A stretch of 64,000 bases of DNA from Candidatus Multivoradales bacterium (GCA_965248055.1 CBDFIJ010000004.1:736001-800000), one strand, 5' to 3'. Numbered from the stretch's first letter, positions 28,153-42,504 are shown. The notes: generated from the letters alone by a model not told the origin. Numbers and translations: made by a program.

Positions 28153-28231
28153 CCCTTTTTTCGTGGAGTTCCCAGCGATATCCGCTGTCTTCTAACAGGC
28201 CCGCTTTCGCGGTCCTTGAGATAAGCGCGGT

Positions 28232-29554
28232 CTATCGAATCAGCAGCGGAGCAGTGCCTTCTTCGCGAATCTGCCAGCAACTCTCCAGTTCATCGAGCCA
28301 CTGCCGGTCTTCGTTGCGCAGATGGGCAATCGCTATCACCTCCCCTACAGTCACTGGATCCCCCAAACGCAGCAGGCGTCGGATGGCAACACCAGCGTCC
28401 AACCCGGACTCCAAACCATCCCCCGAAAAGGCCTTACTCTGCAGCAGTAGGCCCAGTTTGCGTAGATCGACCCCGGCCAGAACTCCCGATTGTTTAGCCC
28501 GAAGGCGAAACTCCTGCTCGGCCAGCCCCCGCGGAGCGTCCTGTGACCTTGCATCAGTTGCCTCAGCCTGGGCTACCCAATCTTTCGTGGCGCCCTGGTG
28601 GCGTGCCCAATGACAAAAGGTCTCCAAGGCTTTCCCCGAGCGCAGTTGATCCGCCAGATCGTCGTAGCTGACCTCGGCTCCGATGACCCGACAGGCTTCA
28701 GCGGACAAGGTCAATGTCACTTCGAGCAAGTCGTCGGCGCCACCGCCAGCCAGCACCGTCAGCGATTCCTCGACCTCCGCAGTATGTCCCGCCCAGTCTC
28801 CCAGGGGTTGCGACATGTCGGTGACAAAGCCCGAGCTCTTGACCCCCGCCTGTTGGGTCGCAGCAATCAAGTCCTTGAGTAGGCCTTGGCTGTCGGCCAA
28901 CTCGGGGAAAATCGCACCGGGTCCGGTCTTGACATCGTAAATCACCGCGGCAGATCCCAACGCGACTTTCTTGGAAACAATGCTTGAGGTCACCAAGGGC
29001 CTGGAGGCGACGGTCCCGGTGCGATCTCTCAGTGCATAGAAGATGCGGTCTGCAGGAGCGATCCCTGGGGTCGCCAGCCCAATCGCCACACCGGTTTGGT
29101 GCAAAGCATCCAACATTTGCTGTCGATCCAGGTCTAGGCGTAGTCCTGGAATGGTCTCGAGCTTGTCCGCTGTACCTCCAGTGTGCCCCAGAGCGCGCCC
29201 GGTGAGCATCGCCACCGGCACCCCCACCGAGGCCAACAAGGGTGCCAAAATTAACGACACCTTGTCGCCGACTCCGCCGGTGGAATGCTTATCCACTAGA
29301 TTGGGAAGCTCGTCGCGAAGACGCCAAGTTTCGCCAGAAGCAACCATGGCACCCACCAGCGCCTGGGTCTCGGCTTCATTCAGGCCGTGGATCGCCGTCG
29401 CCATCAAAAACGCGGCCGCTTCTCCCTCGCCCCAAGAGCCGCTGACCACGCCATCGACGATCGACTGAATCTCATCTGGAGTCAGCGCCTCGCCGCGCCG
29501 CTTTCGATCTAGGAGCTGGTAAGGGAGTTCTGGGGGATTCTGGGGTTCACTCAA
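28232..29554 (-). CDS. Thymidine/pyrimidine-nucleoside phosphorylase
   Basis: DKHSTGGVGDK, GRALGHTGGTADKLE, SIVSKK. Confidence 0.95.
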   Translation of the reverse strand: MSEPQNPPELPYQLLDRKRRGEALTPDEIQSIVDGVVSGSWGEGEAAAFLMATAIHGLNEAETQALVGAMVASGETWRLRDELPNLVDKHSTGGVGDKVSLILAPLLASVGVPVAMLTGRALGHTGGTADKLETIPGLRLDLDRQQMLDALHQTGVAIGLATPGIAPADRIFYALRDRTGTVASRPLVTSSIVSKKVALGSAAVIYDVKTGPGAIFPELADSQGLLKDLIAATQQAGVKSSGFVTDMSQPLGDWAGHTAEVEESLTVLAGGGADDLLEVTLTLSAEACRVIGAEVSYDDLADQLRSGKALETFCHWARHQGATKDWVAQAEATDARSQDAPRGLAEQEFRLRAKQSGVLAGVDLRKLGLLLQSKAFSGDGLESGLDAGVAIRRLLRLGDPVTVGEVIAIAHLRNEDRQWLDELESCWQIREEGTAPLLIR

Positions 29555-29565
29555 ACGGCTACCCG

Positions 29566-30186
29566 TCAGTCCGATTCCAGAAGATTGCTCACTTCAGCGG
29601 TCAACGGGGAATTGGGGAACTGATCAGCCAGTTCGACAATCGTCGACTGCAAATCCTCACTGAGGCCAGCTGCCTGCTGAGTTAGAGCTGCCTCATAGAG
29701 CCGGAGATCTTCGGGAAGCGAGCCCCCTTGCAAAATCGCCAGAGCCTCCTCGTACTGTTCGGTCGCGCGCAATTGATGAACCCGGTTGGTGGTCGCGACC
29801 ACGGAGATCGCATCTACGCCAGAGCCTTCGGCCTGCTGCCAAAGCTCGGCCTGTTCGGCATCGGCTAGGGTAGCCTGATAAAGGCGCGCCATGCGGCCCG
29901 TAGCACCGCCGTACTGATCGACCACCGCGTCCAGTGAACTGCCGTCGACAGAGCCGCCATCGGTAGCATCCAAACCGCTCACCGCCTGGTGTAGAGCATA
30001 GGCGCCACGCTCGGCGCGCGCTTGACGCTGCTGCATCCAAAATGCGACCGCCAGCACCACCAAAGCCAGCATACCTGCGCCGATCAAAATTCGTTTCCAG
30101 TTATCCGCTACGTACTGAACCCCGCGTTCCAACGCTTCTCCAACCTCGTCGTGGCGAAGCTCTTCACGGGTGAGATGGTCTGACAT
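29566..30186 (-). CDS. YfgM-like membrane-anchored TPR protein
   Basis: LTREELRHDE N-terminus, one TM helix, helical repeats, FPNSP. Confidence 0.7.
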   Translation of the reverse strand: MSDHLTREELRHDEVGEALERGVQYVADNWKRILIGAGMLALVVLAVAFWMQQRQARAERGAYALHQAVSGLDATDGGSVDGSSLDAVVDQYGGATGRMARLYQATLADAEQAELWQQAEGSGVDAISVVATTNRVHQLRATEQYEEALAILQGGSLPEDLRLYEAALTQQAAGLSEDLQSTIVELADQFPNSPLTAEVSNLLESD

Positions 30187-30268
30187 TCCTTAATTTCCTC
30201 TCTTGATGGATCGTAGTTACTGCATGCAGTGCGAGCTTAAGTATATTTCTTCACGCTTAACTTAGGGA

Positions 30269-30317
30269 TGGTGCGGCTGGAGGGAGTCGAACCCCCGACC
30301 TAGAGCTTAGGAGGCTC
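30269..30317 (-). repeat. Distal att site: duplicated 3' 49 nt of tRNA-Arg(CCT)
   Basis: TGGTGCGGCTGGAGGGAGTCGAACCCCCGACCTAGAGCTTAGGAGGCTC is identical to 39710-39758. Confidence 0.97.
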
Positions 30318-30372
30318 CATCTTATTGTACGTAAGTGTTTTAAATTCAGTTAATTAGATGGGGTCTTTCTAT

Positions 30373-30392
30373 TCGTGTATCGGTAGTGTATC
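30373..30392 (+). promoter_or_regulatory. Putative integrase arm-type sites
   Basis: TCGTGTATCG-N3-GTGTA, matching 39593-39610 near the other att. Confidence 0.5.
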
Positions 30393-30395
30393 TGC

Positions 30396-30866
30396 CTAGT
30401 CCAGCTGTGGTTTATAGAGGTTCTGAAGGTCCTCCATCACACTCACAATGAACCGCTCTACGAACCTCTCCACTACTTCAGACGTCAGATCGCTAGGGGC
30501 CACTCTTTCGTCGAAGAACTGCTTGCTTGCCGCAGCCCCCACGATTCTTATGGTCTTGGTCGTCGCTTCTGCCTGAAGTACTAGCTTGTACTCCTTTGCT
30601 ATCTGATCGCCATCGGTATTGCCATCAGGGGTCATCACGAGGTCTAGGGTTGCACTCTGCTGACTATCTATGAATATTTGGCATTGGCTTACGTACTCGC
30701 CGTTCGAGCGAATACCCTCTGCCGCAACGTTGAAGACGTACTGCGCCTTTCGCATCCAGTTGGAGCTACCTGCCATGTACAGGTCGCGGGCCTCCTCGTA
30801 CCCAGGAATGCCGTCCTTAACTATCTGTGCAACTCGCTCTGGAAAACTCATGAGCGAACTATACAA
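30396..30866 (-). CDS. Hypothetical cargo protein
   Basis: 156-aa ORF coupled to the upstream gene; lower-GC codon usage; no motif recognised. Confidence 0.7.
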   Translation of the reverse strand: MYSSLMSFPERVAQIVKDGIPGYEEARDLYMAGSSNWMRKAQYVFNVAAEGIRSNGEYVSQCQIFIDSQQSATLDLVMTPDGNTDGDQIAKEYKLVLQAEATTKTIRIVGAAASKQFFDERVAPSDLTSEVVERFVERFIVSVMEDLQNLYKPQLD

Positions 30867-31629
30867 CCAAGTTGGCTACTCGATCAGCCGATTCCAAGAT
30901 CCGCCGTAGCTTCGGATGGATCTCCACGGCAATGCCCACCTTGTCTTCAAATATGGTCGCAATCGCATCCTGCAGTAGTTCATAACTACCCCAGACCAAT
31001 CCCACAGACTCGTGAAAGCTGCCTAGCAGTTCCTTCGTGATGGACTTTAGTGATCCTGTGATGTCTTGGTCCACATATTTGGCAGCCTTGGCTTTTTGAG
31101 CCTCACCGGTGAGATCACCTTCAAGGGTCCTTAGGTTAGCTGCGTACTGCGGCTGAAACCCCTCTTTATGAATGCTCGCGCGTGTCTCAAGTACATAGGC
31201 AAGGTGGTCAAACGCCCATTGACCATTCCGCAAAACGTTGAGTACCTCTGCAGTCTCACCTCGAAGAAGAAACGCAAGCGCCTTTAAGTCCAAGGGTGGA
31301 GGAATCGACGGAACTACCGCAGCGGGCATTTGAAACCATGCGTCTGGGTTGGCCTGCCACTTCTCAATATCCAAGCCTCCGTCAATACTAGTAAGCCAAT
31401 TCAGCTGCCCAACCAAAGAAAACACCGCCAACTGACTGGCTGCGAAGTCCTCTTTTTCCTTGTGGCGTGACTCCCGCCGCTCCTGGTAGCGGAAGGCAGC
31501 AAACGCGCCCGCCCACGCTGCACCAAAAGCAATAGTGCCAGTCACCAGCCATCCCCCCACCACCATAAGAATGCGAAGGCTGTCTCCCCCGCCGCCATCG
31601 GCCCCCATCAACTCAGGAAGAAAATTCAT
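30859..31629 (-). CDS. Hypothetical cargo protein with N-terminal TM helix
   Basis: 256-aa ORF; hydrophobic residues about 20-45 followed by a helical soluble domain. Confidence 0.75.
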   Translation of the reverse strand: MNFLPELMGADGGGGDSLRILMVVGGWLVTGTIAFGAAWAGAFAAFRYQERRESRHKEKEDFAASQLAVFSLVGQLNWLTSIDGGLDIEKWQANPDAWFQMPAAVVPSIPPPLDLKALAFLLRGETAEVLNVLRNGQWAFDHLAYVLETRASIHKEGFQPQYAANLRTLEGDLTGEAQKAKAAKYVDQDITGSLKSITKELLGSFHESVGLVWGSYELLQDAIATIFEDKVGIAVEIHPKLRRILESADRVANLVV

Positions 31630-31724
31630 CGTCTTGCGCTTCGATCCATTCAGTTACCGCACTGTATCTGTTGTAGAGGTTTGGCCGTAGCCGGGTTACT
31701 TGGCCATTTTGGTGAGTTTCTTCC

Positions 31725-31910
31725 TCAGACCTTCTTTTGGGGCGGCAAACTCGCTGTCCAATCGACAGGCTCTCGCTCCTGCCCTTCCCCTTGTTGTTGA
31801 TCAGGCTCAGCTAACCACGGGAACTCGATCTCACGCAATGCCTTGGTTTGTGCCTCCGTGGGTTCTGGCTGGGCGCCCATCCTCAGGTAGTCGTTGAATG
31901 TACGGGCCAT
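31725..31910 (-). CDS. Small hypothetical protein
   Basis: 61-aa ATG ORF on the element coding strand. Confidence 0.35.
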   Translation of the reverse strand: MARTFNDYLRMGAQPEPTEAQTKALREIEFPWLAEPDQQQGEGQEREPVDWTASLPPQKKV

Positions 31911-32008
31911 GGTGGAAACATATTACAACCGCCCCTCAAACAATACTCATCGCCAGTACTGACGTTATGCTTTTTCACAAAACACGGTCCAGGCTGGACC
32001 TTGATTTC

Positions 32009-32179
32009 CTACGTCCCCCACACGCCAGCTGAACGGGGTAGTAGAAGAAGCTCCTTCACAATCCCCTCGGCGAGGTGTCTGAGGAACTCGTTTTCGACGG
32101 CCTTTTTGAGCTTATCCTTGTCAACACCGTGCTTTTTCACCTCGTCTTGAATGAGCGTCTCTAGTTGCGTTCTTGACAT
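32009..32179 (-). CDS. Small hypothetical protein (56 aa, not in the ORF track)
   Basis: RBS AAAAGGAGG 8-9 nt before ATG; MSRTQLETLIQDEVKKHGVDKDKLKKAVENEFLRHLAEGIVKELLLLPRSAGVWGT*. Confidence 0.6.
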   Translation of the reverse strand: MSRTQLETLIQDEVKKHGVDKDKLKKAVENEFLRHLAEGIVKELLLLPRSAGVWGT

Positions 32180-32350
32180 TGGTTAGTCCTCCTTTTCTCA
32201 GTTGGTATTTGTGTGGCCGCTTCGACCTTACATCAGGGCGAACCATATCTGACGGCGACCGTCGTCGCCTCAGACGCAGCGACTACGGGAGAGAACAACC
32301 CTCGAACGCTGATCGGTTGGGTTGGACTCGATGGTTACAATGCGGTGGCT

Positions 32351-32656
32351 TCAGCGTATGGCTGACGTGTTGAACTCATCTTCTGGGATTCGAGCTACGG
32401 CGGTGGCTTGCTTCTGTTGGTCTGCGCTCATTCCAGCTTCTGCGGCAATATCGCGCTTACTCCTAAAAGGTGGGGTATCCCCCTTTTTAGTACTCGGAAG
32501 ATTCCTTCCATCCCTTCCATCAAACTCACGCATCAACTCCCCAGCACGGCGGATTGCTCTTTCGTAACCGCCACGGATATTTCGCACCCGCTGGCAAGCG
32601 AGCACACCTTCAACAACCGTGACGATGGAACGGTCTCGATATTTCACCGTTACCAC
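32351..32656 (-). pseudogene. Probable fragment of a phage HTH-like DNA-binding protein
   Basis: RAIRRAGELM...AAEAGMSADQQKQATAVARIPEDEF resembles phage hypothetical proteins; both ends look truncated. Confidence 0.45.
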
Positions 32657-32762
32657 TCCGTCGGCCGCCTACGGCCAAGCAAGCGACGACAAACAGGACA
32701 ACGGATATCTTCAATCATCGTTAGTTGGCAGGTTGCACCACAAAGGAGAAAGGTGCTGCGGC

Positions 32763-32785
32763 GCCTGCCGTCGCCGGACGGAGGC
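32763..32785 (-). terminator. GC hairpin just after the element core operon
   Basis: GCCT(G)CCGTC-GCCG-GACGGAGGC 6 nt after the stop of 32791-33294; no clear U-tract. Confidence 0.3.
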
Positions 32786-32790
32786 ACGCC

Positions 32791-33294
32791 TCAAATTTGG
32801 GCGAGCGAGCGCTCTGCCTTTTCTTCCGCTTTCTTGAGCTGACGCTCAACCTCGGCAATCTGAGGCTCAAGGAAGCAAAGTGGCCTCGCTCGCGACGCAA
32901 CAGGGCCTAGCTCAGCCTCAAGCTCGGCTGGCATTCGTGGGGCAACCAGCGGGGAGATGTGTTCTGGCCAGCCGCTTTCGATCCATTCCAGGGACAGCTC
33001 GATTCCGCTGTAGTCGTGGCCGGTTGCAGACGGTAGGCGCTCTTTCAATACTTTTTTTGCATCCAAAAGGGCAGTCCTCGTTTCGCGCAAGGGCACTAGC
33101 TCAGCCTCAGCTCGCTCCAAGGCTTGGAGCGCACTCCCCAGCGAGCCACTAACGGCTCGCATCAAGAATAGCTCCTCTGTCAGCTCGCGGCGCTTTCTTG
33201 GAATCGCTTCGCCGTCGATCACATCGGGCAAAACGGCGATTGCTTCCCTGCTGCGAGTGTGCGCTTCACGCAGCTGGTCTGTTAATGCAGTCAT
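32791..33294 (-). CDS. Hypothetical coiled-coil protein
   Basis: 167 aa, E/R/L/A-rich heptads; ATGA coupling with the upstream gene. Confidence 0.75.
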   Translation of the reverse strand: MTALTDQLREAHTRSREAIAVLPDVIDGEAIPRKRRELTEELFLMRAVSGSLGSALQALERAEAELVPLRETRTALLDAKKVLKERLPSATGHDYSGIELSLEWIESGWPEHISPLVAPRMPAELEAELGPVASRARPLCFLEPQIAEVERQLKKAEEKAERSLAQI

Positions 33295-33674
33295 ACGTGC
33301 AGCCCGTAGGTGTCTGGGCCTTGCCCTGGAGCCGTTTTCGCCTTTTTGGCCAGATGTTTTTTCTCGTCGGTTTTTTCGTGCAGGCCGTATGTGTCCAAGG
33401 GGAGGACCTCAGCCCTTGCAATGGTAAGCCGCTGCTTACGGATGGGGGATGTCGTCGGCATGTCGGTCAAGCCGTATGGGTTGAACCACGTGACTGCCGG
33501 TCGCAAGGCCCGTGACTGCTTTGCAGCGGACGGCCCCAAGGCGGCCAGCAGCGCAATGAACTGGTCTCGTTCGCGCTCCAGCACCTTGATTTTCGCCGCG
33601 TGTGGGCACGGCGAGTTTGAGTGTTCACTTCTTGGCATTTTGATATTCCTCCGTCGATTTCTGTTCTGATTCAA
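33291..33674 (-). CDS. Hypothetical protein with three YGL motifs
   Basis: NPYGLT, DTYGLH, DTYGLH; directly after terL. Confidence 0.7.
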   Translation of the reverse strand: MNQNRNRRRNIKMPRSEHSNSPCPHAAKIKVLERERDQFIALLAALGPSAAKQSRALRPAVTWFNPYGLTDMPTTSPIRKQRLTIARAEVLPLDTYGLHEKTDEKKHLAKKAKTAPGQGPDTYGLHV

Positions 33675-33679
33675 AACCT

Positions 33680-35215
33680 CTAGTGAAGCAAATTCTTCAC
33701 TTGTAGGTCGGTAATAATTTGGCCAGCGAAAGCTCGTCGCGATCGCATGATTTCGCTTTGTCGTTCTGGACTGAGACCAGGATTTTCCATCCGAGCTGGC
33801 GGACCAAGGCCGCTACTACCCCAAGTTCCTGCAATTCGTTCAGGCTCCCGCCCGGCAAGCGTCAGCGCGCCAGCAGCCGCATTGACCAAATCGTCATGCC
33901 CGCTCGACGCATGGTCGATAACATCCCGCCCACCTCGTGAAGTTCGGCGCTCCAAGCCCACAAGCTGTGCTTGCAATCTCTCGTGCTCCAGAAGTTCTAC
34001 GCGACCCGAGTTGAGCAGCGGCAGCAGTTCTGAGTAAATCGCCGTCTTCACCTTCGCGGAAGGCTCAAGAGTGATTCCGTGTTTTCCCATCGCCTCAGTT
34101 GCAAAGTCAGCGGCGAAACGGTCCGCCGTCGCGTCAGTCAATCGATACCGCTTCAGCGCCGCAGCAAACTGGCTGCACACCTCGGCTGGGGAAAACGGCG
34201 GTCTTACCTCCCGTACTAGGTCCAGAATCGAAACCTCCTGCCCATCCCGGTCCTCGACGTGAGCAATTGCCAACGTCGCGGAGTCCGCGCCTGAGCCGCC
34301 CGCAAAGTCAAGGAATCCAGCGTAAGAGACGTCATGAATCGGCCCAAGCTCCAATCGCCCCGGCACAGTTGCGCGCTCAACAATCTCCAGCGGCACGAAA
34401 TTCTCGATGTCACTTCGAAACTGAGCCAACCACTCCGCCCGTGCCGATGACTCGTCATCAGCCAGCGCACGGTCAACTTCAGACTGTGGAACTGTCGGAT
34501 TCAGCGCCCGAGTCGGTGCCTGCACTACTAGCACGTCGCCAGACTTGCCATAGTGCCGCTTGTGCGCCCGCCAAAGCTCACCTTTGCGCGCATATGGAGA
34601 AGACAGGCACAGCAGCATCGAACCCGGTACCGTCGCCATAGCTGGCCGCAGCGCGTTCAAAATCTCCCGGTCAGGTTGCGCCGATGAGTCAACCGGCCAA
34701 AATGCAATTTCATCGGCGGCCACACCGATGATGCTGTAACCGCGAACACTGCGAAAGGATGCCGTGTGAATTTCGATTATCAGCCCGTTGGTCAAACGAA
34801 TCTCGGTCTTGGTTTCCGATTCCACCAACTGCGACAGAACCGGAGTCGATGCCAGCAGCCCCGACACATACCGCCGAATAACTCTGGCTTGTCGACGGTC
34901 AGCGGCGATCACCATGAACGTTCCAACCTCACCCGGCGACAGCGAATACTCTCGGCAGGTAGTCAGGAACACGGCCACCACAGCCGCAATCAAAGACTTG
35001 CCGCCACGACGTCCAACTATCGCCCAAAGCTCTCTAGCTTGAGACTGTGGCGCCTCACTTCGGTCCGTCAATTCTTCGAACGTCGCCAGCTCGCCAGCAT
35101 CCAACGCCAGACCAAACAACGCCTTGAGAATCACCCGCCAGCCAGCCCAAGAGTCACCCTCAAACTGCCCTGGCAAGACTCGATCAAGAAACTCAATGAT
35201 CGTGCGCTCAGCCAT
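33680..35215 (-). CDS. Phage terminase large subunit
   Basis: Walker A VGRRGGKS, Walker B VAADE, motif III LSSP, RNase H-like LDFAGGSGAD and HDDLVNA. Confidence 0.9.
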   Translation of the reverse strand: MAERTIIEFLDRVLPGQFEGDSWAGWRVILKALFGLALDAGELATFEELTDRSEAPQSQARELWAIVGRRGGKSLIAAVVAVFLTTCREYSLSPGEVGTFMVIAADRRQARVIRRYVSGLLASTPVLSQLVESETKTEIRLTNGLIIEIHTASFRSVRGYSIIGVAADEIAFWPVDSSAQPDREILNALRPAMATVPGSMLLCLSSPYARKGELWRAHKRHYGKSGDVLVVQAPTRALNPTVPQSEVDRALADDESSARAEWLAQFRSDIENFVPLEIVERATVPGRLELGPIHDVSYAGFLDFAGGSGADSATLAIAHVEDRDGQEVSILDLVREVRPPFSPAEVCSQFAAALKRYRLTDATADRFAADFATEAMGKHGITLEPSAKVKTAIYSELLPLLNSGRVELLEHERLQAQLVGLERRTSRGGRDVIDHASSGHDDLVNAAAGALTLAGREPERIAGTWGSSGLGPPARMENPGLSPERQSEIMRSRRAFAGQIITDLQVKNLLH

Positions 35216-35738
35216 TAAGCACCTCATCTAATGTTGGTGCTAGCTTCGGCTCACGTTTCAGCCCGACCAAACGCAAATGGCGCTCCACTCGATCACATGC
35301 TTGGACCCAGACAACTAGTGCCCGGCGAGTACGTCCAGCACTCGTCAGTGGACCACCAGATTCTGAGACACGGGAAAACGCTGAATCACGAATTGTCACA
35401 GCTTGAGCCAACCCGCTAGCAGCCTGTTTAAGCGCCTCGGGTGCTGATTCCCGACTGTGGCCAGCATCGCTTAGAACCGCGTCCTCAAGCTCCCTCAGCG
35501 CCGCAGCTTGAGCCTTCCAAAACGCTGCGCTGCGATGACCAGCAACAAGTGCAGTTTGATTCCCCGGCAGCACGTGACCACGTTCGCATCGGTCGCTCTT
35601 TTCGAGGTGCGGACCAGCTCCACAAGTGCAAGCCGTCAACGGTCCGTTCTCCATTCCGACTACGCCAGACGGAGCTTGGGCTGCTACACGGTCGCTACAC
35701 AGCCTGTTATTAGTTGGCTTATCTAGTTGATTCATCAA
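35208..35738 (-). CDS. Putative terminase small subunit
   Basis: Overlaps the terL start; PGNQTALVAGHRS resembles the TerS GN-x-A-x-HG motif; helical body; start uncertain. Confidence 0.55.
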   Translation of the reverse strand: MMNQLDKPTNNRLCSDRVAAQAPSGVVGMENGPLTACTCGAGPHLEKSDRCERGHVLPGNQTALVAGHRSAAFWKAQAAALRELEDAVLSDAGHSRESAPEALKQAASGLAQAVTIRDSAFSRVSESGGPLTSAGRTRRALVVWVQACDRVERHLRLVGLKREPKLAPTLDEVLNG

Positions 35739-35782
35739 TAGTTAGCTCATATCCGTTTGTAGCTTCATTGGCTCTAGGTCGG

Positions 35783-35989
35783 CTAGGTTTCTTGGCCCTG
35801 CACATCGGGTTCTGCTTCTTGAGTTGGTTCGTTGATGGTGTTTGCGAGCACGGCAGGTTCGCAGTCGCAGGGATCTCCGGCGAAGATGCCGCAGTCTTCG
35901 TCGTGTTCTACGTTGACTTCAACGACGTCACCGGGGCGAAGCTGTTCGGCAATGACTTCTAGCGCTGGGTAGTAGTTCGGTCGCTTCAT
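35783..35989 (-). CDS. Small putative metal-binding protein
   Basis: HDEDC-x7-CDCEP motif; ATGA coupling with the helicase. Confidence 0.65.
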   Translation of the reverse strand: MKRPNYYPALEVIAEQLRPGDVVEVNVEHDEDCGIFAGDPCDCEPAVLANTINEPTQEAEPDVQGQET

Positions 35990-37461
35990 CCTGCTCCCTT
36001 CGCTTTCGGGTGATCCGGACTACCGTGTCCCGTGCGAGACTTATGTCTCGCAATTCGGGAAACGCTGTGTGTCCCCGACCGTTTCCCGGATCGAGAATCT
36101 TCAATTTCCCGTTGGTCGGACACGGTGGAAACGCTCGCGTCTGAAACCGTTTCCCGAACCGTGTCCCGCGTGTTAGGCCGGGAAACGCTTTTCGGTGCCG
36201 AATATCGACGTCTGGCAGGGCTTCCGCCTTCGGTGATCCTGCCGTCGGCGATCAGGTTTGTAAGTGCTTGCCGGACGGTTGCGGCGCGACTGGAAACAGC
36301 GTCGAGGATCGAGCGCTGGGAGCAACCATCGTTCGCGCTCACGTGAGAAACGATGTCGCCAGAGATTTCGTCGGTTCCGCGTTCGTCCGAGTCCAGCTCG
36401 AACCGGTTGCCCACCAGCCTCACAGTGAACTCTCCGCGTCCGTAGCGGCCTCGATACTCGATCTTGCGCCGAGTACCCGATCCAGCTCGCATAGTTGCGA
36501 TCACGTCGACTGCGGCTTCGATTTCACCACTGTCGCGGCTTGTGCCGTCTGATTTTCTGGCGTGATGAAGAATTAACAGCGCCGCGCCGGTTTCGCGCGC
36601 GAGCCTCACGAGCGGGCGAACCACTCGCGACCACTGGGTCGAACTTCCGCTCTCTGGGGCAATGTGCTGGGCAACATCCGCCAGACTGTCCACAATGATA
36701 AGAATCGGGTCGGTATCCGCAGCAGCGGCGCGAATTTCTGCGGTTGGGTCACTCCTCCATTGGAGGACCGAAACAACCTCAAGGTCTGCGTTCATGTCGC
36801 GCAGCCGTCTTGCCAAGTCGGCGGGGTATTCCTCGCTCGCGATCAGGACCGGGCCTCTCTTTGCGACGGAACCGAGGAATTCACTGCTGGTCGAAACGCA
36901 AGCGGCCCCGTAAGTGGAGAGAGTCGATTTCCCGAGCTTTGCCGGGGCAACTAACAGTGTCACCCTCCCCGGCCATGCGAGCTTGTTCAGTACCGGGCTC
37001 GGTAGGTCAACGCCTTCCGTGACGATCTCCGCAGCCGTTCGAGCAAGGCTTATCGCCTCGCATGGCGTGGCAAGTACCTCTTCCAGCTCAGCGCGCGCGC
37101 GTTCGTCGTCAGGATCCTCAACGAGCTTCTGAGCCGCAGTTGTGACCTTCCGCTTTTGCGCTGCCCGACGAACTGCGACCACGTAGTCGCCTACGCGCTC
37201 GACATCCGGCAGCGAGGTTTCCAGCCCTGCCAACTCGGCGATGGTGACATTCGAGCCGGCGGCTTCCAACTCAGCACCTACTGTGCGCAAATCGGGCACC
37301 GCATCGGTGCCGACTACTCTCGCAATGGCGTCGCGGATCTCTCCGCAGCGAGCGCTTGCGAAATCCTCGGCGGCAAGCTCCAGGACGACATCTGCTGAGG
37401 ATGGGTCAACCAGCACAGCACCGATAGCTGCGCGCTCCGCTTCGTGTAGGTGCGGGTTCAC
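35986..37461 (-). CDS. Replication protein: DnaB N-terminal domain + RecA-like/AAA_25 helicase + wHTH-like C-terminus
   Basis: EAERAAIGAVL..AEDF (DnaB-N); APAKLGKST, IIVDSL, LHHARK, RDSGEIEAAVD. Confidence 0.85.
   Translation of the reverse strand: MNPHLHEAERAAIGAVLVDPSSADVVLELAAEDFASARCGEIRDAIARVVGTDAVPDLRTVGAELEAAGSNVTIAELAGLETSLPDVERVGDYVVAVRRAAQKRKVTTAAQKLVEDPDDERARAELEEVLATPCEAISLARTAAEIVTEGVDLPSPVLNKLAWPGRVTLLVAPAKLGKSTLSTYGAACVSTSSEFLGSVAKRGPVLIASEEYPADLARRLRDMNADLEVVSVLQWRSDPTAEIRAAAADTDPILIIVDSLADVAQHIAPESGSSTQWSRVVRPLVRLARETGAALLILHHARKSDGTSRDSGEIEAAVDVIATMRAGSGTRRKIEYRGRYGRGEFTVRLVGNRFELDSDERGTDEISGDIVSHVSANDGCSQRSILDAVSSRAATVRQALTNLIADGRITEGGSPARRRYSAPKSVSRPNTRDTVRETVSDASVSTVSDQREIEDSRSGKRSGTHSVSRIARHKSRTGHGSPDHPKAKGAG
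36023..36187. repeat. Iteron-like cluster, consensus CGT(G/T)TCCCG, about 10 copies in both orientations (putative ori)
   Basis: Copies at 36023, 36056(rc), 36069, 36079, 36105, 36117(rc), 36127(rc), 36147, 36159, 36179(rc); hairpin TGCGAGAC-TTAT-GTCTCGCA at 36033-36052. Confidence 0.75.
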
Positions 37462-37676
37462 GCCCGACCCCGGTCGCTAGTGCTCGTCATTAACCGGGAC
37501 TCAACGAAGCGCTCAAGGTCGCTGGGGCGATACCTGACGGCCTTCGGCGATAGGCGCACGAACCGAGGGCCACCGCCCCGTAGTCGAAAACTTTCGAGTG
37601 TTCGTGGAGACAAGCCGAGCCGGTCGGCGGCTTGACGAGTGTTCAAGAGTCTTCCGATAGTTGACGTCGTACTCAT
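37458..37676 (-). CDS. AlpA/excisionase-like HTH_17 protein
   Basis: LLNTRQAADRLGLSPRTL..RLRGGGPRF..VRYRPSDL. Confidence 0.88.
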   Translation of the reverse strand: MSTTSTIGRLLNTRQAADRLGLSPRTLESFRLRGGGPRFVRLSPKAVRYRPSDLERFVESRLMTSTSDRGRA

Positions 37677-37731
37677 CGCGTCCACCATCGTATGCAGCCG
37701 TAGCTGCTCCAGCTCACGGTTAACTTCCGAG

Positions 37732-38181
37732 TTAGTCGGGAGGGGCGGTAGTCGCGTGTAGGTAAAACATCGTCGCAAGCTCTTCGGCTGCACGACCATC
37801 GACAGCACTAATCGGTCGCTTGTCGGCACCAAGGTTGATTTCCAATCCTCGCCGGTACTCCCTCCGCGCTACCTCAATCTGAGAAACCGAGCAATTCAGG
37901 ATCTGTCCGGCTGCAGAATCCGCATGGCGACGACGACCTTTCGCGTGCACTACGTCGGCCCGGAGAGTGTCTCCAGCCAGGTCCAGCGGAAACGTTCCGG
38001 CGTAGATACCCTCAGCCACGATAGCTCTGCGTAGTCGGCGCATGACCCGCTCCATTGGCGGGTCTGCCGGGCGATTCGCAGGGCGTGCAGCTAGAGACTC
38101 CATTTCCGCTGCAACCCTGTTTGGGTCACGACCGTTTCGCAGCTCTCCCGCCAGGCGTAGTGCGTCTTTTTTTTGGATCAT
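37732..38181 (-). CDS. Hypothetical protein with possible HTH
   Basis: ATGA-coupled to the integrase; AAGQILNCSVSQIEVAR is HTH-like. Confidence 0.6.
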   Translation of the reverse strand: MIQKKDALRLAGELRNGRDPNRVAAEMESLAARPANRPADPPMERVMRRLRRAIVAEGIYAGTFPLDLAGDTLRADVVHAKGRRRHADSAAGQILNCSVSQIEVARREYRRGLEINLGADKRPISAVDGRAAEELATMFYLHATTAPPD

Positions 38182-39491
38182 CGTTCGCCTCTGAACTCCA
38201 GCACCTTCGCCTCTCTACAATCCAGCGCCTGAGCGATCCTCGCCGTAACCCGGTCAGCGATCTCCCTCAACTGAGCGTTGTCGACATGAATATAGGAATT
38301 GAGTACCGGGTCTTTGACAGCGGCTCTACCAGTTAGGGCACCGGCAAAGGCTGGACCTTCCTGAAAGGCAATCGACTCGAATGTATGACGTAGGGAATGG
38401 AGGTCACAGCCATCGATCCCAGCAGCTTGGTAGATCCACCTACGCGGCTTATCGATCCCGACTAATGGAGCTGTTGGGTTCAATGGTGACCTAACAACTG
38501 GCGCCCCGTCTACACCCTCCGGCTTCACCTTGCTCAACAACTCCACCGCCGTAGCACCCAATGGAAGGGTCCGAGGTTGGCCGCCTTTCCCGCCACTACC
38601 GCCCCCGTGAGCTTCCAATTTGTACGAACCAACCTCTAGGTCAACATCACCCCAACGTAGCCCTTCACGTGGCCCCCTGTAGGCCAGAGTCATGTGCCCA
38701 AGTAATTCGCTTCTCCGCATGCCAGTTAGAGCAAAGGTGCGTATCGCTAGAGCAACGTTGGGGTGAATTGTCTTGGACTTGTCCCCGATCTTGATCGACT
38801 CCCCCGCTTCAACCTTGCGCAGCACTTCCCCAAGCCGCCCTAGCTCCTCAGTGGTCAATGCTCGACGTGGATTCTTTGGTGGCGCGTTGAACTTCTTAAC
38901 CCGTGATGCTGGGTTGGTGTCGATCAGTCCTTCTGTAGCGGCATGCTCCAGGACGGCGTGTAACACCATCCTCAAGTGGTCTGCAGTGGTGGGTGTGTCG
39001 GATAGCTTGCGGTGCATCCGTCTCACGTCATCGACGGTCACATCCTGGATACGTCTTTTCTTCATCGCTGGCGGGACGTGCCTTCTCCATACCCCTTTGG
39101 CGAACGTGAGGCTTGACAATCGACCACGGCGAGCACCAGCCTCCGCCCTCGCTTTGAGATCTTCAAAGTAGCGACTGGCAACATCGTCAAACGCCTCACC
39201 CTCCCTGGCCCGTCTCCGTTGCTCCATCGGATCTACACCCGTGGCCGCACCATACAAATGCTTCTTAGCCAGTTTGCGGCCCTCGTCCACAGTCAATTGA
39301 CCAAAGTTCCCGACAGTCATTCTCCGACGCCTAGATCCATCCCGGTATTCAACAAAAAATGCCTTGGCCCCACCCGCGGTAACCCGCAATCCGAACCCCT
39401 TCAACTCTGTATCGCGGTAGAGGGTCTGATTCGATGCCCCAGCGTGCTGGGCAGCATCGCAAACAGTCTTGGTCAGTTTCTTCGCTGGCAT
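38178..39491 (-). CDS. int: Tyrosine integrase with N-terminal arm-binding domain (P4-like)
   Basis: RDTELKGFGLRV arm domain; TGMRRSE, HSLRHTF, C-terminal Y; RBS GGAGGT. Confidence 0.95.
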   Translation of the reverse strand: MPAKKLTKTVCDAAQHAGASNQTLYRDTELKGFGLRVTAGGAKAFFVEYRDGSRRRRMTVGNFGQLTVDEGRKLAKKHLYGAATGVDPMEQRRRAREGEAFDDVASRYFEDLKARAEAGARRGRLSSLTFAKGVWRRHVPPAMKKRRIQDVTVDDVRRMHRKLSDTPTTADHLRMVLHAVLEHAATEGLIDTNPASRVKKFNAPPKNPRRALTTEELGRLGEVLRKVEAGESIKIGDKSKTIHPNVALAIRTFALTGMRRSELLGHMTLAYRGPREGLRWGDVDLEVGSYKLEAHGGGSGGKGGQPRTLPLGATAVELLSKVKPEGVDGAPVVRSPLNPTAPLVGIDKPRRWIYQAAGIDGCDLHSLRHTFESIAFQEGPAFAGALTGRAAVKDPVLNSYIHVDNAQLREIADRVTARIAQALDCREAKVLEFRGER

Positions 39492-39506
39492 CTATGCACC
39501 TCCATT

Positions 39507-39522
39507 CCCCGACCTAGAGCTT
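39507..39522 (-). repeat. Third partial (16-bp) copy of the att core just upstream of the integrase RBS
   Basis: CCCCGACCTAGAGCTT is identical to an internal part of both att repeats. Confidence 0.8.
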
Positions 39523-39709
39523 GTGGATCCGTTGATCCGGCGACAACTTACAAGCGACCTACAGTTTGATAATCCGTTGGTCGAAATGGTTCTCGTGTAT
39601 CGCCTGTGTAGCACTTTCGGCCCGTTCCATGACGTAGACCAGCGTACCACGTGCGGCGAGCACATGCCAAGTTTACCTGTTATTTATTGACGTTCTTCGA
39701 AGAAAGTGG

Positions 39710-39786
39710 TGGTGCGGCTGGAGGGAGTCGAACCCCCGACCTAGAGCTTAGGAGGCTCTCGCTCTATCCAGCTGAGCTACAGCCGC
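39710..39786 (-). tRNA. tRNA-Arg(CCT)
   Basis: GCGGCTGTAGCTCAGCTGGATAGAGCGAGAGCCTCCTAAGCTCTAGGTCGGGGGTTCGACTCCCTCCAGCCGCACCA folds as a cloverleaf with anticodon CCT; TAGAAT -10 at 39807-39802. Confidence 0.97.
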
Positions 39787-39822
39787 GTCTTGGCGACCAG
39801 GATTCTACCGATCTTCCATTTT

Positions 39823-40341
39823 CTAGTACTGCAATAAAGCCTCGAGACGATAGCCCTCGAGCGCTGCGCGTCCCTCGAGCCCGACCAACTCAATCAAAAC
39901 TTCAACCGCCACGACATCTCCACCTAGGCCGGATATCAGGTCAGCGGTGGCGCGGGCAGTGCCTCCGGTGGCGATCAGGTCGTCCAGGATCAAGACCTTA
40001 TCCCCTTCTTGGATCGCGTCAGCGTGGACTTCAACAGTGTCGGAGCCGTATTCCAGGTCGTAGCTTTGGCTGCGGGTTTCGGCGGGCAGTTTGCCAACTT
40101 TGCGCACAGGAACAAACCCGACATTCAGCTCGTAGGCGACCACCGGGCCGAGAATGAACCCTCGCGACTCGATACCGACAATCTTGTCGATCTTGGTATC
40201 TTCGACCAATTCCATTAAGCCGTGTATCGCTTTGCGGAGGCCCAACGGATCGATTAGCAGCGTGGTGATGTCATAAAAAAGAATCCCCGGTTTGGGGAAA
40301 TCTGGGATTTCACGAATATAGCTCTTGAGTTCATGTGACAT
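39823..40341 (-). CDS. apt: Adenine phosphoribosyltransferase
   Basis: DFPKPGILF, ESRGF, YDLEYG, DDLIATGGT. Confidence 0.97.
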   Translation of the reverse strand: MSHELKSYIREIPDFPKPGILFYDITTLLIDPLGLRKAIHGLMELVEDTKIDKIVGIESRGFILGPVVAYELNVGFVPVRKVGKLPAETRSQSYDLEYGSDTVEVHADAIQEGDKVLILDDLIATGGTARATADLISGLGGDVVAVEVLIELVGLEGRAALEGYRLEALLQY

Positions 40342-40358
40342 AGGAAGTCCTAGTGAGA

Positions 40359-40994
40359 TTAGTCGGCGACCGGCGGCTCTGGATCCGCCACCGGTGATTC
40401 GGGATCGGTGCGTCCGATCCTGCCGGCGCCCCTGCCGAGCAACCAGAACCCACCGATCAGCAGGATAACAAAGGCAATGGTGAGGACACCGAGGTAGTTT
40501 TCAATAAACGCCTGAATGGGAGTGCCGAACAGACGGATCAACCCGGCAACCAGAAAAAACCGAGCGGATCGGGAGAGTATCGAGGCGATGACAAAAATGC
40601 GGAAATTGACGGCGAAGACTCCCCCGGCGATGGTGAAGACTTTGTAGGGAATCGGGGTCAGGCCGGCGATACCGGTCGCCCAAGCGTTGTAGCGATCATA
40701 GAGTTCTTCGACTTTCTGAATCCGGTCACTGCCACCAAACATTTTTTGCAGAATCGGCCGACCGCCTTTGATGCCGATACCGTAGCCGGCGATGCCGCCG
40801 AGGACTGAGCCCAGGCTGCAGATAAAGGCAAACCACACCCAGCGAGTGGGGTCGCCCAAAACCAAGGCGATCAGCAATACGTCTGCGGCTATCGGGAAGA
40901 AGCTACTCTCCATAAAGGCGAGGGCGAACAGCGCCCATGAGCCGTGCGGAGAGCCGGCCCAACTCTCCACCCAACGCAGCAAGTCGTGGAGCAT
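40359..40994 (-). CDS. YqaA/DedA (VTT-domain) membrane protein
   Basis: FMESSFFPI, TPIPYKVFTI. Confidence 0.88.
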   Translation of the reverse strand: MLHDLLRWVESWAGSPHGSWALFALAFMESSFFPIAADVLLIALVLGDPTRWVWFAFICSLGSVLGGIAGYGIGIKGGRPILQKMFGGSDRIQKVEELYDRYNAWATGIAGLTPIPYKVFTIAGGVFAVNFRIFVIASILSRSARFFLVAGLIRLFGTPIQAFIENYLGVLTIAFVILLIGGFWLLGRGAGRIGRTDPESPVADPEPPVAD

Positions 40995-41048
40995 GGTTTC
41001 AAATCGATGCCACATTATGAGCCCGGATGATCCAAGATGTTGTGACGC

Positions 41049-41711
41049 TCATGAATCATTCGGGCTATCCTCCCAGCCGTGACGGCCGATCAAGGGGACA
41101 AACGCCACCGGTTCGCCCGCCTGGCGCGCCACTCCTTCGTGGGTTTTGTCGTAAACCGTCAGCCGCTGCATTTCTCGATTACCCTCTGGCACCACCAAGC
41201 GTCCACCTTCGGCCAACTGGGTGAGTAAGGCAGAAGGCACTTTTGGCGCTCCTGCGGTAACCATGATGCGATCGAAAGGAGCCATCTCGCTCCAGCCAAC
41301 CGTACCGTCAAAGACATGAACCTTGACGTTGTCGACTCCCAGACTACGCAAACGGGCAACCGCATCTCGCCCCAAGTCGGGAATCCGCTCCAGGCTAAAT
41401 ACCCGTCGGGCGAGCCGCGCCAAGATCGCGGTCTGATATCCCGAGCCAGTACCGATCTCTAACACTGAATCCTCGTCTCCAACCCGCAGCAATTCGGTCA
41501 TTCGGGCGACCACATAGGGTTGCGAAATGGTCTGGTCATTGCCGATCGGTAGCGCTGCATCCCGATAGGCCTGGGTCTCCAAGTGTGACGGGACGAAGAC
41601 TTCCCTGGGCACGGCGGCCATTGCTTCCAAAACCCGTTGGTTGGCGATTCCTTTGCACTCCAGCAAGCGAATCATGCGGTCGCGGCGAAGATTCCTGGGA
41701 GCGTTATTCAC
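41049..41711 (-). CDS. pcm: Protein-L-isoaspartate O-methyltransferase
   Basis: QTISQP, LEIGTGSGY, APFDRI, FVPL. Confidence 0.96.
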   Translation of the reverse strand: MNNAPRNLRRDRMIRLLECKGIANQRVLEAMAAVPREVFVPSHLETQAYRDAALPIGNDQTISQPYVVARMTELLRVGDEDSVLEIGTGSGYQTAILARLARRVFSLERIPDLGRDAVARLRSLGVDNVKVHVFDGTVGWSEMAPFDRIMVTAGAPKVPSALLTQLAEGGRLVVPEGNREMQRLTVYDKTHEGVARQAGEPVAFVPLIGRHGWEDSPNDS

Positions 41712-42504
41712 GGCCCTCTCCCTGGGTTTCTCGATCTTCTCCACTCTGGCCCAGCTTCGCCGTCAACTCGCTCAAGCGCGGGTCTCCGGCAAGCCTTCGG
41801 TAGTCCGTCAGGTCCAAATGAAGCGGAGTGATCGAAACCTCGCCAGCCAAGATCGCCGCGTGGTCGGTGCCCTCTTCGTCTTGCCACTCTGGAGTGCCGG
41901 AAATCCAGAAATAGCGCCGGCCTCGCGGATCCGATTTCTCCGAAATCACCTGCTCGTAGGTGCGCGTGCCCAATCGCGTGAGCGACGCTTCTGTGAAGTC
42001 GCGCGCTGGAAAATTAACGTTGAGCAGTACTTTCGGCGCCACCTCTTGGCATAAGACCTCTTGCACCAGACGTCGAGCGAAGCGCGCAGCTCGACCTCGA
42101 TCGGCCTCTTGATCCCGCTGAGAGAAGGCAATCGAAGGAATTCCCAGCAACGAGCCTTCAAAGGTGGCACTGACGGTCCCGGAGTAGGTAACGTCATCAC
42201 CCAGGTTCAACCCATGATTGATGCCCGAAAGCACCAAATCCGGTGGGTTGTCTTTCATCAACCACAACACCGCGAGGTTGACGCAATCGGTGGGAGTACC
42301 GTCGACGCTGTAGACACCCTCCTCCAGCATCTCCAAACGCAGCGGTCGGTGCAGTGTCAAAGCGTGCCCGGAGGCGCTCTGCTCGCGATCTGGAGCAACC
42401 ACCGTCACTTCGGCAATCTGTTCCATCTCCTTGGCCAGCTCGCGCAAGCCTGGAGCCAGAACCCCATCGTCGTTGGTCAGCAGTAGTCGCGGTCGCGTCG
42501 TCAC
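41704..42504 (-). CDS. surE: 5'/3'-nucleotidase SurE
   Basis: TNDDG, GTPTDC, SGINHGLN, YSGTV. Confidence 0.97.
   Translation of the reverse strand: MTTRPRLLLTNDDGVLAPGLRELAKEMEQIAEVTVVAPDREQSASGHALTLHRPLRLEMLEEGVYSVDGTPTDCVNLAVLWLMKDNPPDLVLSGINHGLNLGDDVTYSGTVSATFEGSLLGIPSIAFSQRDQEADRGRAARFARRLVQEVLCQEVAPKVLLNVNFPARDFTEASLTRLGTRTYEQVISEKSDPRGRRYFWISGTPEWQDEEGTDHAAILAGEVSITPLHLDLTDYRRLAGDPRLSELTAKLGQSGEDRETQGEGRE

Follow-up and report, generated by a model that had tools for sequence, protein, structure and literature searches.

A 9.4-kb tRNA-Arg island with its own TerL and TerS-like genes and no recognisable head gene: a possible phage satellite carrying a packaging motor

What does a DNA-packaging motor do on a mobile element that encodes no recognisable particle for it to fill? 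The question is raised by a 64,000-nt stretch of DNA from Candidatus Multivoradales bacterium (GCA_965248055.1, CBDFIJ010000004.1:736001-800000), hereafter the window, in which a 9.4-kb island occupies the 3′ end of a tRNA-Arg gene. An earlier note, made from the sequence alone, had described the island as a candidate new type of phage satellite with its own small and large terminase subunits (TerS and TerL) and no head genes. The computational analysis reported here finds an intact 9,441-bp integrative element in the 3′ end of tRNA-Arg(CCT), with a TerL gene, a TerS-like gene upstream of it and, as the earlier note had claimed, no Pfam, PHROG or NCBIfam match to portal, capsid, tail, lysis or repressor among its open reading frames (ORFs). 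The most economical reading, which we infer, is a phage satellite that would bring a whole packaging motor, loading its own TerS-like/TerL pair on the portal of a helper phage; its probability is put at roughly 0.6.

The island and its terminase

A repeat search over positions 28000-42000 returned a single family of direct repeats, with copies at 30264-30317 and 39705-39758 (spacing 9,441 bp) whose final 49 nt are identical (30269-30317 and 39710-39758). ARAGORN found one tRNA in the entire window, tRNA-Arg(CCT); since this gene, on the minus strand, overlaps the right-hand repeat, the latter represents the tRNA's 3′ part, of which the left-hand repeat is a duplicated copy. The 3′ part of a target tRNA together with a duplicated distal copy is the classic signature of site-specific integration. 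The boundary features and the two terminase genes are as follows.

30269-30317: distal att repeat, 49 bp, copy of the tRNA-Arg 3′ end; defined by identity with 39710-39758
39710-39758: integrase-proximal att repeat, 49 bp, inside the tRNA gene; defined by the repeat search and ARAGORN
39710-39786, minus strand: tRNA-Arg(CCT), the integration target; ARAGORN
33680-35227, minus strand: TerL, large terminase, 515 aa, likely start Met5; phrog_2 (3.1e-21), phrog_9 (8.5e-14)
35208-35738, minus strand: TerS-like protein, 176 aa, cluster c2; directly upstream of TerL, no family match

The insertion is real and recent. A genome of the same genus (G001) has the same flanking genes, a single tRNA-Arg(CCT) and one att core without the island: its homolog of the TPR_21 gene (48% amino acid identity) is followed by a gap of ~810 bp and then by tRNA-Arg(CCT), an interval that measures 9.4 kb in the window. 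By match coordinates the gap is similarly short, about 0.8-0.9 kb, in G006, G007, G012 and G015. When 13.6 kb around the island was searched against 30 relatives, the flanks matched many of them; the interior matched none of the 30 and gave matches only in its own genome, including a 1.3-kb remnant considered below. One of the 30, G002, is unpublished and underlies none of the claims made here. The insertion is younger than the split from G001. G+C content is ~0.52-0.54 at the cargo end of the island, 0.56-0.62 in the rest of it and 0.55-0.62 in the flanks. The claim of a 9.4-kb tRNA-Arg island with perfect 49-bp att repeats is thus upheld by the repeat search, by ARAGORN and by the empty site in G001, and so is the claim that simple prophage decay does not describe what is a discrete, intact integrative element.

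Two additional partial copies of the att core, CGACCTAGAGCTT..., are found at 39510-39582 of the window, in the interval from the integrase start to the tRNA. Both are 28 nt long, 79% alike mutually and 68% alike to the core, and they could be integrase binding sites or the scars of earlier insertions.

TerL is a two-domain large terminase of the tailed-phage type, with an ASCE ATPase and an RNase-H-like nuclease. In an alignment with 23 relatives at 50-65% identity, G72, R73, R74, G76 and K77 of the Walker A motif (GRRGGKS) were invariant and S78 was present in at least 90%; the Walker B residues D172 and E173 and, in the nuclease half, D307, D369, D435, D438, H439, D445 and D446 were invariant as well. 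The Terminase_6C match fell exactly at the cut-off, and a TerL profile searched against PDB sequences gave nothing at E 0.001 or below. The AlphaFold2 model (mean pLDDT 84.5) found its best solved match in HK97 TerL (6z6d; Foldseek E 5.2e-19, probability 1.00), a likeness in fold at a sequence identity of 17%. Next came the PhiV-1 terminase (from an Avs3 complex) and the Sf6, T4 and D6E terminases; isolated ATPase/nuclease domains of G20c and P74-26 ranked below these. Judged from sequence and model, the enzyme looks functional. Its likeness to HK97 suggests cutting of the cos type; an HNH gene was not seen among the island genes.

The gene directly upstream shares 8-20 bases with TerL, according to which start is taken. 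It belongs to cluster c2 (66 members). In 46 of the 76 genome loci described below a gene of this cluster immediately precedes TerL, and one is found upstream of TerL also in a phage contig (L097) where a portal comes after TerL. In the AlphaFold2 model of the protein (pLDDT 72), residues 61-176 form a helical core predicted with confidence. A complex prediction for TerL with residues 55-176 scored 0.34, the best of three controls scoring 0.00; the runs share at least 88% of contacts, with a partner pLDDT of at least 68. This support is weak: of 80 solved complexes 58 passed the mark, as did 2 of 110 mismatched pairs, and passing scores of 0.60 or below were obtained by only 7 of the 80 solved complexes and by both passing mismatches. 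Position and this weak prediction together suggest the role of a small terminase, and the TerS label of the earlier note is kept here as TerS-like; it finds no backing in family membership or in a fold match above background, as detailed where the satellite reading is weighed.

Twelve ORFs lie between the att repeats, every one on the minus strand, with 4-base start/stop overlaps at int/orf149, HTH_17/helicase, helicase/68-aa ORF and orf127/orf167, in agreement with the one-strand, translationally coupled gene run seen earlier. Besides the terminase genes the island contains the following.

38178-39491, minus strand: tyrosine integrase (int), 437 aa; Arm-DNA-bind_3 (7.9e-15), Phage_int_M (2.3e-8), phrog_1 (3e-35)
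37732-38181, minus strand: orf149, no assigned function; overlaps the int stop by 4 bases, no family
37458-37832, minus strand: HTH_17 protein, 124 aa, Xis/AlpA-type excisionase or regulator; PF12728 (8.5e-8), phrog_66 (1.8e-8)
35986-37461, minus strand: replication helicase, 491 aa; AAA_25 (RepA-like) ATPase (1.1e-23), DnaB N-terminal domain (1.3e-10), winged helix-turn-helix (wHTH), phrog_19 (1.2e-19)
36022-36189: iteron-like cluster, putative origin; six ACCGTKTCCCG 11-mers in both orientations, at most 1 mismatch
35783-35989, minus strand: 68-aa ORF, no assigned function; no family, three Cys and one His only
33291-33674, minus strand: orf127, no assigned function, probably 115 aa from Met13; sole homolog the remnant copy in its own genome (71% amino acid identity)
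32791-33294, minus strand: orf167, no assigned function, helix-rich; remnant copy 83% identical in amino acids
32351-32656, minus strand: orf101, phage-associated family of no assigned function; phrog_33995 (3.6e-11)
30859-31629, minus strand: orf256, cargo, hydrophobic N-terminal stretch; no family
30396-30866, minus strand: orf156, cargo; no family

The labels int, AlpA/Xis-type HTH, helicase and TerL given previously were all recovered; those of orf149 as 'HTH' and of the 68-aa ORF as 'Zn' protein were not, neither having a family match. Phrog_66, matched by the HTH_17 protein, is labelled 'excisionase and transcriptional regulator', and the same protein also gave weak MerR-type matches. 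No primase domain occurs among the family matches of the helicase. The 11-mer cluster lies at the 3′ end of the helicase gene, where six of the ten matches in the window fall within 168 bp, with the four others elsewhere in the 64 kb; an iteron origin is plausible from this clustering, and the apparent origin of the earlier note is retained as putative. Orf149, the 68-aa ORF, the TerS-like protein, orf127 and orf167 belong to no Pfam, PHROG or NCBIfam family, and orf256 and orf156 had no match in Pfam, PHROG and PADLOC scans. One homolog of orf149 was found, in the related island L035 (36% over 88 aa). Iterated hidden Markov models (HMMs) built from orf127 and orf167 retrieved only the remnant copy in the same genome, and their best ESM Atlas scores (0.77 and 0.81, respectively, to unnamed clusters) were uninformative. 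Promoter and terminator scans stayed at chance level and tandem repeats were trivial. Outside the island, at 26824-28152 on the plus strand, the window of this soil Acidobacteria genome encodes a GDSL lipase/acylhydrolase that ends in a type I dockerin domain (C-terminal; 2.4e-9).

Relatives of the terminase, with and without portals

TerL had 5,601 database matches among 8,000 scored candidates, the top 120 at 52-68% identity and many of them on megabase contigs; by sequence the clade appears to be very large, crossing phyla and numbering more than 5,600 members. Genome loci were drawn from contigs of one genome per species, as the best 80 of 195 confirmed relatives, and 76 of these were counted, four (L024, L030, L060 and L078) being omitted where the TerL call was lost to a competing ORF. 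According to database records the carriers belong to Acidobacteriota, Alpha-, Gamma- and Deltaproteobacteria, Nitrospira, Binatia, Gemmatimonadota and Rokubacteria; cultivable ones include Nitrobacter vulgaris DSM 10236 (L020), Halomonas salipaludis WRN001 (L022), Aliidiomarina iranensis (L045), Bradyrhizobium centrosematis LMG 29515 (L068) and Rhizobium cremeum S302 (L071).

The layout of the window island recurs among these loci; the earlier note would have been refuted by a layout that never did. An integrase lies within 9.5 kb of TerL in 49 of the 76, in 36 of them upstream on the same strand as in the window island; the TerS-like gene is present in the 46 already mentioned, and a primase-helicase or helicase of cluster c3 or c4 in 36. 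Direct repeats of 28-66 bp, nearly all on a tRNA gene, bound 22 loci with sizes of 9,603-17,712 bp. Three portal HMMs, built like the head-gene HMMs from the same locus data set, found no portal in any of the 76. An independent check applied PHROG to 133 plus-strand ORFs of at least 190 aa, taken from the 6.5 kb that follow TerL in the 76 loci: the 25 commonest families listed (down to two members each, so that single-member portal hits are possible) contain no portal family and do include major head, protease and tape-measure families. By the HMMs, an HK97-type capsid occurs in 6 of the 76 loci, a prohead protease in 8 and a tape measure in 9, at least one of the three being present in 20; 13 of the 22 repeat-bounded loci have none of them. 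'No head genes' is therefore true of the window island and does not define its family, which still goes without a portal when such genes are present. Judged by gene content, the window island is the minimal member of a spectrum of 8-18-kb tRNA-integrated TerL islands.

Three further observations concern the genes beside TerL. With the IMG/VR loci added, an HK97-type capsid gene without a recognisable portal is found in 10 of 130 TerL loci (L045, L076, L061, L080, L081, L036, L094, L101, L105 and L119; portals sought by HMMs). A tape-measure-like gene, sometimes with a Neck1/tail-completion gene, occurs without capsid or portal in L085, L071, L074, L036, L044, L048 and L070. An iterated HMM placed an unannotated family of 220-290 aa (c17-like) directly after TerL in 19 loci (L003:11446-12120, L006:7392-8102, L007:12620-13309, L016:11306-12103, L093, L097 and 13 more); the window island lacks it, other islands have it, and so do two phage contigs, in which the portal comes next.

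The nearest relatives were placed by a TerL tree (FastTree, 121 rows of at least 420 aa, SH-like supports only), in which the window TerL falls in a clade of eight (SH-like 99) with L003, L006, L007, L012, L016, L035 and L039. All eight are without portal and capsid and belong, per database records, to Acidobacteriota; the closest homologous loci are accordingly not full prophages, which by the earlier note would have refuted its reading. Three are delimited by att sites, at tRNA-Pro (L012, 10.8 kb), tRNA-Leu (L016, 12.7 kb) and tRNA-Glu (L035, 16.1 kb). L006, L007 and L039 have an integrase, which adjoins a tRNA in L007 and L039; in L006 the tRNA is found where the gene run ends, on the far side. 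Among portal-bearing relatives the nearest are L116 and L120, which stand in a neighbouring clade. Sixty ORFs of the seven nearest loci were scanned against PHROG, and among the top 25 of the 54 matched families were primase, helicase, methyltransferase, transposase, excisionase and one head-scaffolding match. A head-scaffolding-like gene (phrog_206, 2.4e-17) is found at L007:11778-12623, directly after TerL in a capsid-less acidobacterial island; from its sequence it is a candidate for redirecting capsid size. Orf167 of the window island shows no similarity to this scaffold-like protein.

Isolated phages carry little of this terminase: 5 of 50,697 GenBank phage records match TerL, the best at 25.9% identity. 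A distant TerL relative (25.5% identity) occurs in KX853514.1, 'Virus Rctr16k', a 16.7-kb virus record from an enrichment culture. IMG/VR yielded 50 loci with this TerL, 14 of which have a portal after it, of types phrog_145, phrog_146 and phrog_156 (one representative checked for each of three clusters). The TerL is 39-50% identical to that of the window in 11 of these 14 contigs and only 26-27% identical in the other three; most of the contigs are 21-116 kb long. Direct terminal repeats were found on three of the 50 IMG/VR contigs, namely L084 (9,398 bp, repeat of 60 bp), L085 (9,819 bp, 114 bp) and L119 (8,231 bp, 114 bp), with units of about 9.3, 9.7 and 8.1 kb; apparently these are repeats such as circular or terminally redundant molecules give. 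L085 encodes an integrase, an Xis-like protein, a replication initiator, TerS-like and TerL proteins, a 245-aa protein of no assigned function, and Neck1/tail-completion-like and tape-measure-like proteins, with no capsid or portal match in its 10 scanned ORFs.

Comparison with known satellites

The core of phage-inducible chromosomal islands (PICIs), as defined in the portions of PMC10085698 cited here, comprises integrase, regulator, primase-replicase, capsid-morphogenesis and terS genes, typically with no further structural gene; their median size is 9.5 kb, and PhiRv1 and PhiRv2 are counted among them. The window island resembles PICIs of the Gram-negative type in size, in tRNA/att integration, in having no capsid, tail or lysis genes, and in the order integrase, Xis/AlpA-type regulator, replication protein and origin, packaging module, accessory genes (PMC10085698). 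It differs from them in that PICIs, by that definition, have at most TerS, whereas the island adds a full-length TerL, and in that its TerS-like protein is in no known TerS family. Set against the SatelliteFinder definition, the integrase is present; the alpA/merR/stl regulator may correspond to the HTH_17 protein (8.5e-8, weak MerR-type matches and phrog_66) and the primase-replicase to the DnaB-N/AAA_25 helicase without a primase domain, both by profiles other than those of SatelliteFinder; and the rule of no structural or packaging gene besides terS or one for capsid morphogenesis is broken by TerL.

Capsid-forming PICIs (cfPICIs) are set apart in the same source by adaptor, connector and terL and are detected at 9-11 of 11 core components (PMC10085698); they produce their own capsids (PMC10085698; 10.1101/2022.09.08.507074). 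No other satellites in the portions of these sources cited are described with a TerS and a TerL of their own, and like cfPICIs some relatives of the island have an HK97-type capsid. The island differs in showing at most five of those core components (integrase, regulator, replication protein, TerS-like and TerL) and no head gene, with no capsid, adaptor, connector, protease or portal match among its ORFs, and its capsid-bearing relatives differ in having no recognisable portal. P4-like satellites carry the Sid/Psu/Delta capsid-size and regulatory genes and the P4 alpha primase; no such Pfam or PHROG match was found among the island ORFs. A complete temperate tailed prophage is likewise not what the locus holds, portal, capsid, tail and lysis genes being unmatched in an element of 9.4 kb. 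The layout therefore falls, as had been proposed, outside the PICI, cfPICI and P4-like types in terms of the published core-gene definitions (PMC10085698).

PICMIs (phage-inducible chromosomal minimalist islands) and VEIMEs (virion-encapsidated integrative mobile elements), marine satellites of a minimalist kind, are comparable as small integrase and replication satellites without capsid-remodelling genes, and the difference is that the passages cited describe only small terminase homologs in them (PMC10803314, PMC9618062). VEIMEs have TerS homologs and 'motor-like ATPases', and their large terminase is assumed, in the text cited, to come from the helper (PMC9618062). PICMIs and VEIMEs are reported there to be packaged as concatemers, and a 9.4-kb island in a full-size head would need to be packaged likewise. 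The EPIP elements of Mycolicibacterium (PMC12822802, preprint) share the odd mix of retained morphogenesis genes, tape measure included, that is seen in L085, L071 and L036; they differ in a set of TerS, adaptor, stopper, scaffold, tape measure and serine integrase in which the part of the preprint cited does not list TerL (PMC12822802). PICI-like tycheposons have terS or a major capsid protein gene (10.1101/2020.12.28.424599, in the portion cited), and the AH14b satellite no terminase (PMC4936722, likewise). Full-text literature searches, with supplements and subscription journals outside their coverage, gave no account of an integrative satellite with TerS and TerL and without capsid or portal, and the island family is apparently undescribed.

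How the island would travel, and the alternatives

As a satellite with its own motor, the island would excise upon infection by a helper phage and replicate from its own origin. The TerS-like/TerL holoenzyme would recognise and cut island DNA and dock on the portal of the helper procapsid; the island DNA, probably as multimers, would be packaged in place of phage DNA and leave in helper particles, and the integrase would reinsert it at tRNA-Arg in a new cell.

Several points weigh against this proposal. A foreign TerL must fit the helper portal, which is a demanding requirement, and packaging, excision, induction and helper dependence are all steps that we infer from sequence. The TerS-like protein is in no known family (Pfam, PHROG, NCBIfam), and its best PDB profile match (E 0.15) is to an unrelated protein. 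Its fold search stays within the background for helical proteins, where the alignment of its core with HK97 TerS (8pop_A; Z 7.1, rmsd 3.2 over 86 residues) ranks 40th; Foldseek against BFVD gave nothing at E 0.001 or below, and a wider fold search returned helical hairpins of a generic kind, with Z no higher than 8.0. L003, which has the closest TerL (62-65% identity), shows no integrase or att site within 10 kb on either side. On the tree the TerLs of portal-bearing phages are interleaved with those of islands, the portal label changing at least 5-6 times, a pattern compatible with repeated reduction of phages or with exchange of terminase modules between helpers and satellites. The host assembly (97.7% complete, 4 contigs) has no match to PF05065, PF04860, PF05133, PF03864, PF03237 or phrog_145, so that no helper prophage is detectable, and its only match to PF17289 and PF03354 is the TerL of the island itself. 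The same genome holds a 1.3-kb remnant of a related island (G000:C4:60380-61645, L002/L134; 83% nucleotide identity), a sign that such elements decay. Finally, the public data (4 runs from one sample and study, probably those behind the assembly itself) are at contig level and broken at the 49-bp repeats, where they give no joints and the short intervening sequences and loose ends resemble other tRNA genes; they are uninformative on attP or an empty attB.

A wider claim builds on the same proposal: that the TerL islands may form an undescribed, phylum-spanning class of satellites whose core is an HK97-like TerS-like/TerL pair loaded on helper portals, never with a portal of their own, and in which optional capsid, protease, scaffold, Neck1 and tape-measure modules might remodel the stolen particle. 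Taken as a whole, this claim has slightly less than an even chance of being right.

The alternative that survives best assigns the terminase to interference or defence: it would compete with or poison phage packaging, or cut phage DNA, transfer of the island being secondary. Satellites commonly interfere with the packaging of their helpers, according to the text cited from PMC11417361 and 10.1101/2025.02.27.640495; the host genome offers no helper prophage; and the function of the cargo is unassigned, including the protein with a hydrophobic N-terminal stretch. A PADLOC scan of the nine unannotated ORFs returned no matches, however, and the combination of an integrase, a replicon of its own, a full two-domain motor whose ATPase is intact and circular forms found free suits a packaged mobile element more than a fixed defence gene. 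The genes that relatives add (capsid, protease, scaffold, tape measure) are moreover morphogenesis functions. A defensive terminase is judged unlikely.

Somewhat less probable again is a decaying small temperate phage that has lost portal, capsid and tail and persists as an integrase-bearing fossil. The degraded second copy speaks for it. That remnant covers the 3′ end of TerL, orf127, orf167 and the first 21 codons of orf101, has no tRNA nearby, and yields a dN/dS against the island of 0.41-0.58, no more than moderately low; comparison of the two copies shows TerL to be much better conserved over its final ~47 residues than over the part before them. TerL matches at E 1e-50 or better were found in 12 of 301 sampled Acidobacteriota genomes (counting G000 and the unpublished G177), some of which have 3-5 copies with broken ones among them. 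In one (G084), three of five TerL-clade matches have internal stops or are truncated, which suggests repeated invasion and decay, and the portal-bearing phages interspersed in the tree point in the same direction. Decay accounts poorly, however, for perfect att repeats around 12 open and tightly coupled ORFs, for an insertion later than the split from G001, for TerL catalytic residues that are invariant among relatives at 50-65% identity, for the compact architecture bounded by att repeats of at least 28 bp in 22 loci of several phyla (9.6-17.7 kb), and for the existence of circular or terminally redundant contigs of 8-10 kb.

A non-viral mobilisable island or integrated plasmid, in which TerL would serve a purpose other than packaging (such as processing of replication intermediates) or would load particles resembling gene transfer agents or vesicles, is improbable. 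It would agree with the lack of phage structural genes found in the host and of a close TerL in isolated phages; the fold and motifs of TerL are those of a canonical packaging terminase, though, phage contigs with a portal have a TerL of the same clade (39-48% identity), relatives carry other head and tail genes, and family scans of the island ORFs matched no relaxase or conjugation domain.

A self-sufficient miniature virus, its capsid and portal hidden among the unannotated ORFs, is very improbable even with five ORFs without assigned function, since these are of 101-256 aa with no capsid or portal family match (an unknown ORF proving to be one or the other would have counted against the earlier note), the portals of the TerL clade measure 476-703 aa and the capsids of relatives about 364-453 aa, orf167 is essentially without relatives (one distant homolog among 1.84 billion representatives), and the unassigned coding capacity totals less than 2.5 kb.

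Known satellites redirect the helper terminase with a TerS of their own or build a whole capsid. If the window island is indeed a satellite with its own motor, a whole motor without a shell would be a third strategy of piracy, and the portal, rather than capsid or TerS, would be the point of parasitism. Satellites would be extended into soil phyla where almost none are known. The same reading would explain why isolated phages almost lack a TerL clade that numbers more than 5,600 members, as well as many of the 'orphan terminase' genes to which prophage predictors give a viral label, and it would provide a natural system for the study of compatibility between TerL and portal.

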